Positions 36,655-54,384 are shown, counted from the whole stretch's first letter. The stretch: DNA of 63,231 bases, filler included, from Rhabdomonas costata (GCA_019059605.1; 50 parts of 50 records of this genome joined end to end with filler, not necessarily neighbours in it); one strand, 5' to 3'. Notes: generated by a model not told the origin, from the sequence alone. A program made the numbers and translations.

Positions 36655-38030
36655 NNNNNNNNNNNNNNNNNNNNNNNNNNNNNNNNNNNNNNNNNNNNTT
36701 AATTAATTAANNNNNNNNNNNNNNNNNNNNNNNNNNNNNNNNNNNNNNNNNNNNTGAGGTGTGGTGTAGAGGGTGCTGGTGGTGTGAGGTGTGGCGTAGA
36801 GTGTGGGGAGTGCATGGATCTGGGGCTGGATCTGGAGCTGTATCTGGAGCTAGAGCTGGAGCTGGAAGAGGTGGTGGTCGTGACGTTGGGACGTTTGGGA
36901 CGTGGTGGTGGTGGTTTTGTGTCTTCGCAATTGGCATTCGGGTCTCAGTCTAAGGTCCTTGGTTTCTGATTCCATGATATCTGTGACGGTTACACCGGAG
37001 CGCACTCGTGTACGACCAAGCACTGAGTGGTGGTGTAGCGTACAAGCCTGAAATTGATGACAGCAGGGAAGTGGTGCGGGTAGTACCTGGCTGCAATCAA
37101 CACCTTCTCTGGGTACAGTGGTTGACATGATGGCTACGAACCACTACAACCACCGTCACAGAAGTGCTGATGTTCCTACTGCTACGGGTGGATGTCAGTA
37201 ATACCCGCTGTGGAGGGGATTCTGATGGAATGGATGCCGCTTGACCACCACAGATGGAGTTGAGAGACAACGCAGATGCTTGTACCCACCCAGTAAACTA
37301 CTGTGTATGAGTGAAGATGACACTAACCTCGAATGCATGAGCCACCATGCGCCTACAACAACCATCAGAAGCAAGAATGCCTAAATCTAACCCTAAGGTG
37401 GCATTCTTACTCCGGCTATGCCCGGTCGGAGTGAGTGAAACCGCGCTTATGTCGGTGGAACGAACAAATTGACATCTGCACTTAACCACTGAGTTGAGTG
37501 AGCGTAACCGGACAACGGTGGAGCGAACCTTAAGAGAAGAGTCGCATGCTCAGTCATTCGCATGCTTGACCTCTAACGCATTTCACAATTTTCCCCAATT
37601 CCGTAAAGCAAGGTGAGCAGGCAAAGTCTGGTTAAACACAGTCCGTCTTAAGATACACAGCTCCATAAAAAAGCACACACACACTTTAAAAACTCCTTAA
37701 CACTACAATCAAAAAGAAAAATGCAAAAATCACTTTCTTTGCACGGATGACTCTTCAATAGAATGCCTTTGCGCAATTTAAACATTCAGGGATTCTCTCT
37801 TTCCATTCCGTTCTCTCTCGCTCAAGCGCGCGCTCCATGCAACTCTTTTTACCAACAAAGCTTTCAAACTGCTACCTGACTACTTCCACAAACACACACA
37901 TCCCACCAACAACCAACAACCNNNNNNNNNNNNNNNNNNNNNNNNNNNNNNNNNNNNNNNNNNNNTTAATTAATTAANNNNNNNNNNNNNNNNNNNNNNN
38001 NNNNNNNNNNNNNNNNNNNNNGGGGTGGTG

Positions 38031-38231
38031 TGACCCCACCCCTTCCCCAGAATACAGCTTGTTTGATTCCAATCTATCAACATCCTGGTCCGCATTGTGC
38101 AGTAGTAATTTTAAATTTTAGAGACCTTTTTAGAGACATAGGTATGACCCCACCCCTTCCCCAGAATACAGCTTGTTTGATTCCAATCTATCAACATCCT
38201 GGTCCGCATTGTGCAGTAGTAATTTTAAATT
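38031..38231. repeat. Direct repeat of about 88 bp (38031-38118 and 38144-38231) at a contig start
   Basis: Identical duplication, seen as repeated TPPLPQNTACLIPIYQHPGPHCAVVILN in the ORF track; probably an amplification or assembly chimera. Confidence 0.8.
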
Positions 38232-39667
38232 ATAGAGCCCAGGGGATTCCTTTTTACAAATTACTTGGCCGATTTTTTCTTTGCGATTCCTACAATTTAT
38301 TATATTTTTCCCTTTCGAAAAGATGTAATACCTTAAATACCATTACAGAAGGCCCCTTGCCACCTCTTTCGAAGATGCCCTTGACAGAAGCGCGAGGAAA
38401 GGCTCTGCTGAGGAAGCTCCCAAACCCGAAGCACCCTCCAGTGGGTCTCCGCGCTCTTCGTGCTGCTCAGCACGTGGCCGGCCACAGGGTACAACGGGTT
38501 GTCCTCCTCCGCCCCCTCGGCCGAGGGCTCACCCTCCGGGGAACGCACGCAGGTGACGAACTCGCGGCGCTGTTTGTTTTGTTTTGTATCGCTTTATCGG
38601 ATGCAATGGCCCCTTGATAGGGTCCGTGGGTGCGAATGGCTTAAGGGCCCTATCCGCCAAATACATATGTCTCGTGTCAAGTGTGGGGGGTATGCCTCGA
38701 GTCGTAAGGGGGGAGGGGAGATAGGAGCGGTGTCCACTAAGTGAGGTTCTTGGTCTTGCTGGGGGTTTGGTAGCGATGCACCCTTCTTTGCTTATTTGAG
38801 GCTGGGTTCGGCCGCACAAATTTGCCTCTGATGAGCTCCTCTGGATAATTTCCCGCCCGCCTCCACGTCTTGCAACACCCATCCAATTCGCTCGGGAATC
38901 CGGGCACTTTATCCGCCAAATATGACTCGAGACATAACCTCATCCGACTCTGTTTCTTGAGGCAACGCTCCTGGTTTCCTTCGGAAACGTCTAGTTCCCT
39001 GCCCTCGAGCTGCAAAATGAGAACACGACAGATTCGAACACGTCAAACCTTCTCTGATCCTCAGTTCGCAGAATCTCTACTTCAAGTTGGGACTGGCGGG
39101 CGGTAAGGTTGACCACACACACGCGCGGAAAAAGCAAAAATTTGGAGAAAAGGTGAACATCCGAACCCATCATAAAATCCAAACCAACNNNNNNNNNNNN
39201 NNNNNNNNNNNNNNNNNNNNNNNNNNNNNNNNTTAATTAATTAANNNNNNNNNNNNNNNNNNNNNNNNNNNNNNNNNNNNNNNNNNNNTGAATTGGGTGA
39301 ATTTGGTTGGTTTTTAATTCGTACTAAAAAAAGTACGAATAGAAAGGCAAGCAATTAACATAAGGTTCACAAGTGACCTGCAAAACTCAGTCCGTCCGCC
39401 ATAGCACTACCAAGGGAGTGAGAGCATGGTAGATTGCGAAAAGGTGCGAAAAGGCAAAGGGCCGCATCGATGTACAGAGAGGAAAAGCCGGGGGGGGGGG
39501 CGATGTTTTCCTTGCAGCCAAGTACAGAGAAGAGGAGAGCACCCAGGCGGATTGGATGGAGAACAGGTGACCAAGTGTGCGCCTGAGTGTATGTGTGTGC
39601 GTGTGCGTGTGCGTGTGCGTGAAGAAGGCTGAAGGAGCAGAGGAGGGCAGATCGAGACGAAGGAAAC

Positions 39668-40554: not shown

Positions 40555-41722
40555 ACCACCAACAACTCCGGTCCACCTCGTTAATCACTCTGGATGGGTC
40601 ATCAAACTCGGGTTTGGACAGGTAATGTTTCGCACTGATTAGGGGGTGCACGTCGTAGACGGCAAAGTAAACTTTATCTCCATCTGGAACTCTGTAAGCC
40701 CACGCCAACTCTCTCGGCAACCTCACTGTCCAACGGAGCTTTTTCCCGAGTCCCAATTCGCACACAGATAATTCAAAGTACTCCCTGTGTACACAGCTCC
40801 TCTGCATTTTATCCACGTAACGGCCTGATTATGTGGAACTCTGGATTCAACCACCTCACTTGAGTATTCTATGAACTCCATGTCAATCACCATAATCCTC
40901 TCTGGATTGTATAACACCGGGAATTTACAAAACCATCAACTTTGGAACTGTCTCTGGAGCCGCCTTGGGAACTGCACTCTCTGTGGAAGACGAGGGCGTG
41001 GCTCTGGACACCCCTGTCATTGTGGTTCCCGTCCCTTGCTGTGCATTACCTCCTCTGGGAGGTTCCACCAACGGTCCACTACCCATCTTCAGCTGTCGCA
41101 AAATCTCTCCCAACGTATCTGCAACTGGTGGCTGTGGAAGGGGCTTCGGGGCTCGAGGGACATACTTCACCCACTGCCTCGTCTCTGGAAGCTGGGACAA
41201 CAAGTCTCTGGAAACAAGCCTCCTCCTCAGAACCTCATTAATCAACCCCTCGATATTCTCCCGTTCTGAAATCAGAACCGATCCATCAATCTGTTCAACC
41301 ACCTCCATCACATACGTCACCATGGCATGATCCTCCAACACTGGTGGAATGGTACTCAGGGTCTGTAACTGTGGAGATCCCTTGGCAACCATCCTCCACT
41401 CGTTCAACTCCTGCATAGCCTTAGCCATCTCAACTCTTCCATGCTCCAGAATACCCACTAGATTTGTGATCTCTGCATTCTCTTTCTGAAATCCACTGCA
41501 CTGCATTCATCCACCTCGTGGTACTTTCTACCGCTCCCGAACGTCTACTATTCAGTCGCTCTGCAGTCTCTTTTAGCACCTTCTCCAAATCTGTTGAAGA
41601 CTTATCAAAGCACTGCACACAAGCCTCATACCGATTCTGTAGATTGGCCCTCACAAACGCGTTCAGACCTGCCCAGTAACGCTTCTCTGCAGGGGGCTTA
41701 GGGGTCTGGGACATCCCCACAA
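40555..41722 (-). mobile_element. Copy 1 of an intronless repeated element: coiled-coil ORF1 plus the start of a DEDD-like nuclease ORF2 (frameshifted, internal deletion)
   Basis: ORF1 ends ...TLGEILRQLKMGSGPLVEPPRGGNAQQG...PKLMVL*; ORF2 reads MVIDMEFIEY...RELAWAYRV...; collinear with 44355-45020. Confidence 0.7.
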
Positions 41723-44354: not shown

Positions 44355-45521
44355 TTGCAGATACGTTGGGAGAGATTTTGCGACAGCTGAAGATGGGTAG
44401 GGGACCGTTTGTGGAACCTCCCAGAGGAGGTAATGCACAGCAAGGGATTGGAACCACAATAACAGGGGTTGCAAGATCCACGCCCTCGACTTCCACAGAG
44501 AGTGCAGTTACCAAGGCGGCTCCAGAGACAGTTCCAAAGTTGATGGTTTTGTAAATACACAGTGTAATACAATCCAGAGAGGATTATGGTGATTGACATG
44601 GATTTCATAGAATACTCAAGTAACGTGGTTGAATCCAGAGTTCCACATGATCAGGCAGTTACGTGGATAAAATGGAGAAGATCTGTGTACACAAGGAGTA
44701 CTTTGAAATATCTGTGTGCGAATTGGGACTCGACCCCGTTTTGGTGTGGTAAGAACCTCAGTAACCCGATGCAATGGTGGACTTTTGAGCAGTTTGTTTC
44801 TATTGAAGAGTACCATATGAGTGGGAAAAGGCACCGTTGGACAGTGAGGTTGCCGTGTGCCGTGAGAGAGTTGGCGTGGGCTTACAGAGTTACAGAGGGA
44901 GACAAAGTTTACGTTTCCGTCTACGACGTGCACCACCTGATCATTGCGAAACATTACCTGTCCAGACCCGAGTTTGATGACCCATACAGAGTGATTAACG
45001 AGGTGGACAGGAGTTGTTGGTGGTACGCAGAGAACAACGTTCAACAGTTAAGATACAGTCCTGGAGAAGCGGGTACAAAGTTTGGGAAGGCTTTGCAGAG
45101 ATTGAAGTCGGCGGTGCGGACGATGAAGTCGGATAAGTTAATGGTTAAGGGAAATCCAGAGGGGGCGGAGTTGCTGAGCAAATATTTCGAGTTTTTATGA
45201 CTTCCAGACCATCCACCGATAGTGGAGTGCCCCAGAGTAAGAGTGAAGCAGCCAGGTGCGTTGTCTCCAGAGGTCCAGAGCAAAGTGTTGCATCCATTCA
45301 AGTTTGTTATGAGGACTACAAACCCATGTCACTTGGGAAAGCATGTGGGGAATTCACGTTTCCAGACAGATGACAATGTGGACCACTGTGCCGTGGTCGA
45401 GTGCTTGTATTACTCAGTGTATGGGTTGCCAGGTTCCAGAGTGGGAAGTTTCACAAATGACCGGTACACGACGTTTATCAGACACTTTGCCATTGACGAG
45501 AGGATGTCCATCCCACAAACA
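44355..45521 (+). mobile_element. Copy 2 of the same element: ORF1 end (to 44554) and DEDD/Maelstrom-like nuclease ORF2 (44586 to contig end) with an in-frame TGA at 45198-45200
   Basis: VIDMDF...VRELAW...WWYAENNVQQLRYSPG...LMVKGNPEGAELL..FL*..ECPRV...CHLGKH...DHCAVVECLYY; ORFs 44586 and 45222 share a frame. Confidence 0.7.
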
Positions 45522-53218: not shown

Positions 53219-54384
53219 GTGGTGGGTGTGTTTGGTGTGGTGTTGATGCTGACCGGCGAGTTCTTGGCGAGTGGCATGCTGATGTGGCTTGCGGCTTAGC
53301 TGCACTGGCCAGGGTATATTCTTCACTGGGCAAATTGGAAGAAGCTGAGAGATTTTTTGAGAAGGCCTTGAGAATAAAGAGGCGGTGGTTCGGCAGCGAG
53401 CATCCCGAGACAGCGGCCGCTCTGAACATTTTTGCTGATTTCCTCATGACTGGAGGGCGTGAAACAGAAGCCGAGCCTCTACTTGTGGAAGCATTGAGGA
53501 TTCGGAGACTTCCCTCAAACAGAACCAATATTAATTCCGCCATGGGCGAGGCAACGTGCTTACGAAGTCTTGCGGCTGTTTATCGAACTCATGGGAAGTA
53601 TGCAGAAGCAGAACCTTTAATACACGAGGCTATGGCCATTCAAAGTCAGCAGGTTGGTGCCGATCACCCCGAATATGCCTTTAGCTCGAACGTTCTTGGG
53701 GACATTTACGTCAAGCAGGGCAAATTTGCGGAAGCGGAGGCGGAGTTTGAGAAGGCCTTGAGGATTTGGAAGCAGAACGGTGGTGTCGATCACCCCGAGG
53801 TGGCGTTCTGTCTGAACAGGCTCGGGGTTCTTTTCAGCACGCCGGGCTACAGCCTTGGGGCTACCTTCGGTCCTCAAGGCAATCTAGCAGCAGCGGAGTG
53901 GCATTTGCAGGAGTCCTTGAGAATATACGGAAAACACCTCGGCAGTCATCCAACGGTGGCGCAATGTTTACGCGATTTAGGGTCCGTGTACCTGAAAAGG
54001 GGCAGGTTTGCGGATATGGAGTCCCTGTATGAGCAGGTTTTGGGGATGGAGCGGCAGCTCTATGGCATCGGTGACCACCCCGCTGTCGCGAGAACCCTGA
54101 ACGTAATCGCATCCATTTGCAGCAAGCAAGGGAAGTATTCCCATGCAGAGCCACGCTTTGCCGAAGCCCTGAAGATTCAGAAGCATCTGGGCAGCGAGCA
54201 CGTTGACATGGCTATAACCCTGCTGGATTACGGGTTGCACCACGGGAGGCAAGGTAAACACGCCCCCGCTCAGCAGCTAATAGCAGAGGGTTTCGGGATT
54301 CTGCGGAGCCACTTTGGCAACCACCACCCACGTTTGGCGCTATACTTGCGGGAAGTAGCGATCGAGTTGAGCAACCAAGGCAAT
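53219..54384 (+). CDS. TPR-repeat protein (kinesin-light-chain/nephrocystin-3-like ~42-aa TPRs), partial
   Basis: Contig-long ORF with about 9 repeats of G.EHP.vA..LN.La.vY..QGK..EAE.L...AL.I. Confidence 0.92.

Follow-up and report, generated by a model that had tools for sequence, protein, structure and literature searches.

The window examined in this study is a stretch of 63,231 nt of DNA from the euglenid Rhabdomonas costata (GCA_019059605.1), in which 50 contigs, each 1154–1180 bp in length, are joined with spacers of N. The published R. costata draft was built from amplified DNA and has an N50 of 1194 bp and a guanine plus cytosine (GC) content of 51.6% (PMC8219788). Two of the 50 contigs, which we refer to as copy A and copy B, are diverged copies of a repeated coding unit that comprises two open reading frames (ORFs), a helical ORF1 and an ORF2 that is predicted to have encoded a DnaQ-type DEDDh nuclease. 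Copy A and the reverse complement of copy B are collinear across the first 670 bases of copy A, with 38 differences in 570 aligned bases (93.3% identity), and a repeat finder also paired the two contigs, through arms of 378 nt and 161 nt, each 93% identical. This similarity is far beyond chance. The visible unit, combined from the two copies, amounts to 1.77 kb and is free of introns. Its features are given below, with the family members found in database searches, referred to as relatives, named by P numbers.

44355..45521, plus strand: copy A; the entire contig lies within the repeat unit (end of ORF1, junction, most of ORF2)
40555..41722, minus strand: copy B; the entire contig lies within the repeat (~290 ORF1 codons over two frames, junction, first part of ORF2, deletions of 91 nt and 9 nt)
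44357..44554, plus strand: 3' end of ORF1 in copy A, a Pro/Ser/Thr-rich tail with a TAA at 44552-44554; 11-nt overlap with the start of the conserved ORF2 frame
44544..44585, plus strand: conserved N-terminal extension of ORF2, WFCKYTV*YNPERI, aligning to relatives P0006 and P0025; a TGA lies just upstream (44541-44543) and there is no internal ATG
44586..45521, plus strand: ORF2 as first drawn, 312 codons; the contig end cuts it ~25 codons short of the stop in relatives
44589..44606, plus strand: VIDMDF, ExoI-like D-x-E of strand 1; D-x-D in copy A, D-x-E (VIDMEF) in copy B
44732..44822, plus strand: stretch of copy A missing in copy B, 91 nt, frameshifting
44865..44885, plus strand: RELAWAY, strand 2, with a conserved Glu; candidate zinc ligand as in Maelstrom
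45147..45167, plus strand: KGNPEGA, ExoII-like site after strand 4; Glu in the family, Gly in copy A
45198..45200, plus strand: TGA within the ORF2 frame, a copy A lesion; sense codons in relatives
45327..45344, plus strand: CHLGKH, conserved His pair; candidate zinc ligands
45384..45404, plus strand: HCAVVEC, ExoIII-like H-x4-E; a Cys adjoins the His, as in arenavirus nucleoprotein and Maelstrom

ORF1 is helical across the ~290 codons seen in copy B, and its 5' end lies beyond the window. The ORF1/ORF2 junction is identical between the two copies. In relatives P0006 and P0025, the alignment with the ORF2 frame begins at 44544 and 44547, 14 codons upstream of the ATG at 44586, so that the last 11 nt of ORF1 are shared, in the +1 frame, with the conserved ORF2 coding sequence. 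This arrangement may reflect separate translation of the two ORFs, a +1 frameshift, or a lesion that predates both copies, in which a single ancestral ORF was broken by a small deletion; the last option hinges on a coincidence of two residues. At a further locus, L001, on 1.1 kb of metagenome sequence, a frameshifted homologue 49% identical to ORF2 continues ~25 codons further than ORF2 does, and the 460 bp downstream of it contain no long ORF. A helical ORF1 with a disordered tail, followed directly by an overlapping ORF2 across a junction that both copies share, is an arrangement that a retrotransposon could also have, with a gag-like, nucleic-acid-binding ORF1, the nuclease as an accessory gene and reverse transcriptase beyond the contig ends, and euglenid genomes are described as rich in varied retroelements (bioRxiv 10.64898/2026.05.21.726589). 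Against such an origin, which we consider quite improbable, stand the 460 bp after the L001 nuclease ORF, the lack of a Pfam match for ORF1, and the full-length relatives described below, which run from a Met of their own to a stop after the nuclease and contain no reverse transcriptase in ~900 residues.

Neither copy is intact. In addition to the 91 nt, copy B lacks 9 nt (copy A 44855-44863), and its ORF1 is split over two frames on the minus strand (41430-41720 and 40925-41506). Copy A has, besides the TGA at 45198-45200, a TAA at 44565-44567 within a stretch that is coding in relatives, where copy B has TTA. A preliminary description of this DNA had reported two diverged, collinear copies with independent lesions, namely a deletion of ~90 nt and frameshifts in one and the TGA in the other. 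We recovered these lesions, together with all of the ORF2 motifs that it listed, and the TAA is an addition to them. Comparison of the two copies in the ORF2 frame revealed 21 non-synonymous and 4 synonymous differing codons, with differences at codon positions 1, 2 and 3 in the ratio 10:8:9, and the ORF1 tail has 8 non-synonymous differing codons and 1 synonymous. This is the pattern of neutral decay, not that of a gene pair under selection. Both window copies are dead, that is, pseudogenes that no longer work. This is because they carry stops and frameshifts, have lost one acidic residue (E-to-G) and differ in a neutral pattern.

As a separate observation, the 38 differences between the copies (44355-45024 versus 40555-41124) comprise 27 transversions and 11 transitions, and 20 of the 38 are G/T or A/C changes, an unusual spectrum.

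Searches with single sequences provided few leads. ORF2 had no sequence match in Pfam, PHROGs or PDB, ORF1 had no Pfam match and only chance-level PHROG rows, and Rfam had no matches to the window. There were no near-length ORF2 homologues at E ≤ 1e-3 in a single-sequence search, and a protein atlas search with window ORF2 and relative P0021 gave no usable lead. Sequence and profile rows from the PDB (phosphoenolpyruvate carboxykinase, GPR55, haemagglutinin HA2 and TFIID) were set aside as chance-level. A HMMER search of 1.84 billion representatives with ORF2 returned 15 matches at E ≤ 1e-3, the best at 5e-33, several of which have out-of-frame tails. All ten representatives that were looked up are on ENA or JGI metagenome contigs; nine of these contigs are 694–4334 bp in length, and one relative, P0011, is on a contig of 35 kb. 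Profile searches added a second subfamily, 21–25% identical to window ORF2, with intact members. Including those from cluster look-ups, intact members range from 277 to 898 residues, and P0032, P0021 and P0010 sit on metagenome contigs of 3.7–4.6 kb. Neither an RNase_T-type nor a Maelstrom (PF13017) match was found at E ≤ 1 among 28 family proteins scanned against Pfam. Scans of the 2.9 million viral contigs of IMG/VR with patterns from two family alignments identified no relative, and neither did the same two scans of prokaryote genome contigs. By these searches, the ORF2 family is unannotated and, besides the R. costata window, is known from short metagenome contigs.

The full form of the second subfamily is a single protein of ~900 residues with its own Met (P0035), in which an N-terminal domain of ~390 residues is followed by an acidic or Ser-rich disordered linker of ~220 residues and then, at the C-terminus, by the ORF2-like domain. 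Both structured domains are conserved between two lineages of the protein that are 42% identical, and the ~900-residue relatives have no Pfam match. Window ORF1 gave only low-complexity matches to their N-terminal domain. A motif at first thought to be shared by the linkers, A-[SD]-x-L-[DG], was dropped, as local alignment scores were no better than those of shuffles (p 0.19–0.64). Two matches of a different kind, P0011 and P0019 (metagenome contigs of 35 and 33 kb), are tandem-repeat proteins with units of ~52 residues that contain DDHC..QC.EYTSY, resembling the H-C-x3-E helix of the family, and five stretches of such repeats match ORF2 residues 255-285 at E 3.4e-6. These repeats may be a satellite derived from the 3' part of the gene, or the match may be due to chance. 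Both proteins were excluded from all alignments.

An AlphaFold model of relative P0021, built with 28 sequences, had a predicted local distance difference test score (pLDDT) of 75.2 and a predicted template modelling score of 0.77. Along the model, strand 1 (54-65) is followed by a helical insertion and by strands 2 and 3 (111-125 and 131-139); then come helices, strand 4 (203-206), a helix (210-223), strand 5 and a last helix (280-290). The RNase H-like core is thus present, with strands 1-3 preceding a helix, strand 4, a second helix, strand 5 and a final helix. Its best structural matches were DnaQ-type DEDDh exonuclease domains, with the arenavirus nucleoprotein exonuclease and Maelstrom among the tied best, and the best solved match was a viral exonuclease, the Lassa nucleoprotein. 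Three other best matches (DinG residues 3-171, DNA polymerase residues 422-595 and a mycobacterial protein) we take to be exonuclease domains too. The top Foldseek rows in the PDB were RNase T, a DnaQ domain, arenavirus exonucleases, Pop2 and PARN. In BFVD, the best matches were two ichnovirus ORFs (E 3e-4 and 7e-4), a protein without a name, and phage and arenavirus exonucleases, and an adintovirus protein matched at E 2.2e-3 with a template modelling (TM) score of 0.51 on the target. The alignment to Lassa begins at model residue 50, which corresponds to chain residue 381. If it is gap-free that far, D58 and E60 would presumably fall on Lassa D389 and E391, in the numbering that we assume for that protein. 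The model thus supports a DnaQ-type DEDDh 3'-5' exonuclease fold for the ORF2 family. The preliminary description had suggested a DEDD/Maelstrom-like nuclease on the basis of its motifs, and this suggestion is supported by the P0021 model. Structure prediction followed by Foldseek, one of the checks that it had proposed, gave an RNase H-like/DEDD fold for P0021 and failed for window ORF2 itself.

The positions of conserved residues in the model are consistent with this fold. Residue counts, in P0021 numbering, come from 56 sequences, among which many cluster members are nearly identical, and the exceptions fall mostly in frameshifted fragments. On the first strand, the D-x-E of ExoI is represented by D58 (kept in 20/21) and E60 (19/22). 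The Glu of KGNxxE, E212 (37/42), is a candidate for the ExoII acid and lies near the first turn of helix 210-223, after strand 4. ExoIII is represented by H-C-x3-E on the last helix, with H278 kept in 36/39, C279 in 35/40 and E283 in 38/38, which is the spacing of H-x4-D with Glu replacing Asp. In this way VIDxEF, KG..E and HCA..E, which had been singled out from the translation, fall at the ExoI, putative ExoII and ExoIII places of the fold. From a D-x-E, an acid after strand 4 and an H-x4-acid on the last helix, we infer the DEDDh pattern. A candidate zinc site would consist of the strand-2 Glu, E119 (25/27), the Cys that follows the His of ExoIII, and the His pair H264 (34/35) and H266 (36/38), which is located where C-x2-H would be expected. 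By analogy with active protist Maelstrom proteins and arenavirus nucleoprotein, the predicted protein of intact relatives would be a Mg/Mn-dependent 3'-5' exonuclease or exoribonuclease with a structural zinc site.

The RNase H-like fold class is also common to RuvC-like and DDE enzymes, and the best-kept acids, D58, E212 and E283, are at strand-1, after-strand-4 and late-helix positions that such enzymes may use as well. The domain could then be the DNA-cutting enzyme of an element, transposase- or resolvase-like, instead of an exonuclease. We regard this as very improbable. The strand-1 D-x-E and the H-x4-acid are the DEDDh signature, and Pfam revealed no DNA-binding or zinc-ribbon transposase module. 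Neither DDE transposases nor retroviral integrases were present among the matches listed in two structural searches (50 per search).

Within the DEDDh exonucleases, the ORF2 family is probably nearest to the zinc-bearing branch that contains Maelstrom (MAEL) and the arenavirus nucleoproteins. Arenaviral exonucleases and MAEL have been described as sister branches with a zinc site common to both (PMC7968707). In Bombyx MAEL, the zinc ligands are E137 on strand 2, C290, H293 and C302, with position 306 at the site of the ExoIII acid; protist MAEL proteins retain both the DEDD residues and the zinc motif, the Entamoeba protein with both is an active exoribonuclease, and the same double motif was noted in the Lassa nucleoprotein (PMC4408791). 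The family resembles the C-terminal exonuclease of arenavirus nucleoproteins (Lassa, Mopeia, lymphocytic choriomeningitis virus and Tacaribe; 3r3l, 3mwt, 6sx8, 4o6h and 4gve) in the DEDDh-type order of acidic residues, in H-C-x3-acid and in a strand-2 Glu as a possible zinc ligand. It differs in that identity is 11–17% with no sequence-profile match, its last acid is Glu and not Asp, a His pair occurs where the viruses have C-x2-H, a helical insertion of 50–70 residues separates strands 1 and 2, and it is encoded in eukaryotic DNA and is not an RNA virus nucleoprotein.

The likeness to MAEL (PF13017; 4ybg, 5af0 and 9nhc) includes the pairing of catalytic residues with a zinc motif in protist forms, a Cys that precedes the ExoIII acid position by four residues, like C302 before R306 in Bombyx, and a strand-2 Glu that parallels the Bombyx ligand E137 (PMC4408791). 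MAEL also occurs in Euglenozoa, as domains with the DEDD residues have been reported from Trypanosoma and Leishmania, both members of this group (PMC2628886). Unlike MAEL, the family has no HMG box, and the scanned members lack a Pfam Maelstrom match; H-x(1-3)-H takes the place of the C-x2-H of ECHC, strand 1 is followed by the extra insertion, and the nuclease is fused to the ~390-residue domain through the ~220-residue disordered linker. Cellular DnaQ-type DEDDh enzymes (RNase T, Pol III epsilon, TREX1/2, the DinG N-terminal domain and Cas2-DEDDh) share the fold and the positions of D-x-E, the middle acid and H-x4-acid, and are also among the top Foldseek rows, but the family has no sequence match to their Pfam families, has Glu in place of two Asp, and possesses candidate zinc ligands that cellular enzymes are described as lacking (PMC7968707).

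As to what carried the nuclease, the preliminary description had favored an endogenous Polinton-like virus with tightly packed ORFs. Repeated, decayed and intron-free coding DNA in a protist genome is a property shared with Polinton/Maverick elements and Polinton-like viruses. An origin from these or another DNA virus, with the nuclease as one of several packed genes, gains something from the weak BFVD matches to ichnovirus ORFs and the adintovirus protein, from the rank of Lassa nucleoprotein as best solved match, and from giant-virus-like genes reported from R. costata transcriptomes (bioRxiv 10.64898/2026.05.21.726589). We nevertheless consider it improbable. The copies (1.77 kb), L001 and the ~900-residue relatives contain no visible polymerase (including pPolB), capsid, packaging ATPase, protease, integrase, transposase or reverse transcriptase, which agrees with the earlier remark that no hallmark gene is visible. 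A full-text literature search, judged on titles and abstracts, yielded no report of a Maelstrom or DEDDh gene in a Polinton or adintovirus. The two "packed ORFs" seem to belong to one architecture (N-terminal domain, disordered linker, nuclease), which in relatives is a single ORF for a long protein with the nuclease as its C-terminal domain. The Polinton-like reading is therefore not supported, as no defining genes are seen in the visible sequence and two IMG/VR scans detected no relative. Besides these points, the lack of a relative in the two pattern scans of prokaryote genome contigs and the one-protein architecture of the relatives also speak against a virus. The finding adds no new virus, and flanking sequence would be needed before the Polinton-like reading is taken any further.

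The best explanation of these data, to which we assign a probability of about 50%, is that the euglenid genome harbors a repeated coding unit without introns, a decayed selfish repeat that encoded a DEDDh-type nuclease, and that the two contigs are dead and diverged copies of it. The unit would consist of a helical N-terminal ORF1 of at least ~290 codons, a disordered Pro/Ser/Thr-rich tail, and an ORF2 domain of ~335 residues with a DnaQ-type DEDDh fold nearest to the arenavirus-nucleoprotein/Maelstrom branch. Intact relatives retain the D-x-E on strand 1, the Glu after strand 4, the H-x4-E on the last core helix, the strand-2 Glu, the His pair and the Cys beside the catalytic His. Most likely, the carrier would be a selfish repeat of an uncharacterised kind, whether a mobile element or DNA of viral derivation. 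Several features speak against an ordinary host gene, namely the lack of an intron in 1.77 kb, the low GC content of ORF2 (47.5%), a CpG depletion at the low end among the 50 contigs of the window, the position of both contigs wholly inside the repeat, and the decay of the window copies and of several relatives. For comparison, the R. costata transcriptome has a mean GC of 58%, and six tabulated genes have 2 to 10 complete introns per 0.9–2.1 kb (PMC8219788).

We place the odds that the unit is a selfish repeat at roughly even, with a host gene family as the main rival. A host multigene family is, taken by itself, a possible but doubtful account, in which a euglenozoan MAEL-like nuclease, acting perhaps in RNA silencing or processing, became much duplicated and the window contains two of its pseudogenes. 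It is in keeping with the intact DEDD residues of MAEL in Trypanosoma and Leishmania (PMC2628886), with relatives that form a complete ~900-residue protein that has a start codon of its own and lacks transposition and replication domains, with the conservation of N-terminal and nuclease domains between two lineages that are 42% identical, and with the absence of relatives from viral contigs in the two IMG/VR pattern scans. It sits poorly with an intron-free unit in a genome described as intron-rich (PMC8219788), a GC content below that of host coding sequence, the decay of both window copies and several metagenome relatives, and the lack of a Maelstrom match in the 28 family proteins.

Several points weigh against the reading of a decayed selfish repeat with a DEDDh nuclease. 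For window ORF2, AlphaFold with 16 sequences gave an unusable model (pLDDT 44.1), and the fold model is that of P0021, which is only 21–25% identical to it. Foldseek comparison of that model with the PDB returned no match at E ≤ 1e-3, the best being 7.8e-3, and there is no sequence-level link of the family to any known one in Pfam, PHROGs or PDB. The helical insertion of ~50–70 residues is absent from the reference structures, the equivalence of the ExoII Glu to Asp and those of the zinc ligands were drawn from secondary-structure order and spacing, and the loop with the His pair has low model confidence. Terminal repeats, target-site duplications and transposition enzymes were not seen in the contigs, both of which end inside the unit. 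Copy number is extrapolated from 2 of 50 contigs, the only ones in the window to which 29 family proteins matched by tblastn; the exact 95% interval is 0.5–13.7%, so that a high copy number is plausible. Lastly, kinetoplastids, relatives of the euglenids, have large host multigene families that are rich in pseudogenes, and a host family is therefore a live rival.

During the analysis we noted additional features in other contigs of the window. One contig (7619-8785) has a GC content of 17.9% versus ~50% for the other 49, and one frame of it is open from 7816 to the contig end, with no Pfam match and no IMG/VR relative. It may represent organellar, symbiont, prey or AT-rich viral DNA. Near-perfect palindromes with arms of 43–70 nt that are 96–100% complementary were observed at or near contig ends (27576-27790, 31696-31788, 56776-56905 and 7-149). 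These are likely amplification chimeras, because the assembly was made from amplified DNA (PMC8219788). Two direct 100-nt copies, 97% identical with starts 114 nt apart, are located at 38027-38240. At 53328-53924 a 48-nt unit is present in three diverged copies, 69–77% identical to the reference copy, in what looks like a repeat-protein gene.

With the ORF2 family, the DEDDh exonuclease superfamily gains a new member that had no annotation, probably in its Maelstrom/arenavirus branch, and the window contains this member only as pseudogene copies. A family that has neither a Pfam model nor a solved sequence relative can now be given a fold and a probable activity, on the basis of the model, and the repeat may make up a measurable share of a very fragmented assembly. 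The history of this exonuclease branch is debated, both as to protist nuclease versus animal RNA-binding Maelstrom and as to the origin of the arenaviral exonuclease (PMC2628886, PMC4408791, PMC7968707). If the residue-level affinity to Maelstrom and arenaviruses holds, a euglenozoan, multi-copy and apparently still catalytic lineage would join the branch. A bolder proposal, which we think unlikely, is that a selfish repeat of euglenids and metagenome protists carries a catalytically intact, zinc-bearing exonuclease of the Maelstrom/arenavirus branch, which may blunt host RNA silencing. If true, the enzyme with which arenaviruses destroy double-stranded RNA, and which animals turned into the PIWI-interacting RNA factor Maelstrom, would have a multi-copy relative encoded in DNA, and this relative would be a candidate for the source, cellular or mobile, that has long been sought for the arenaviral exonuclease.
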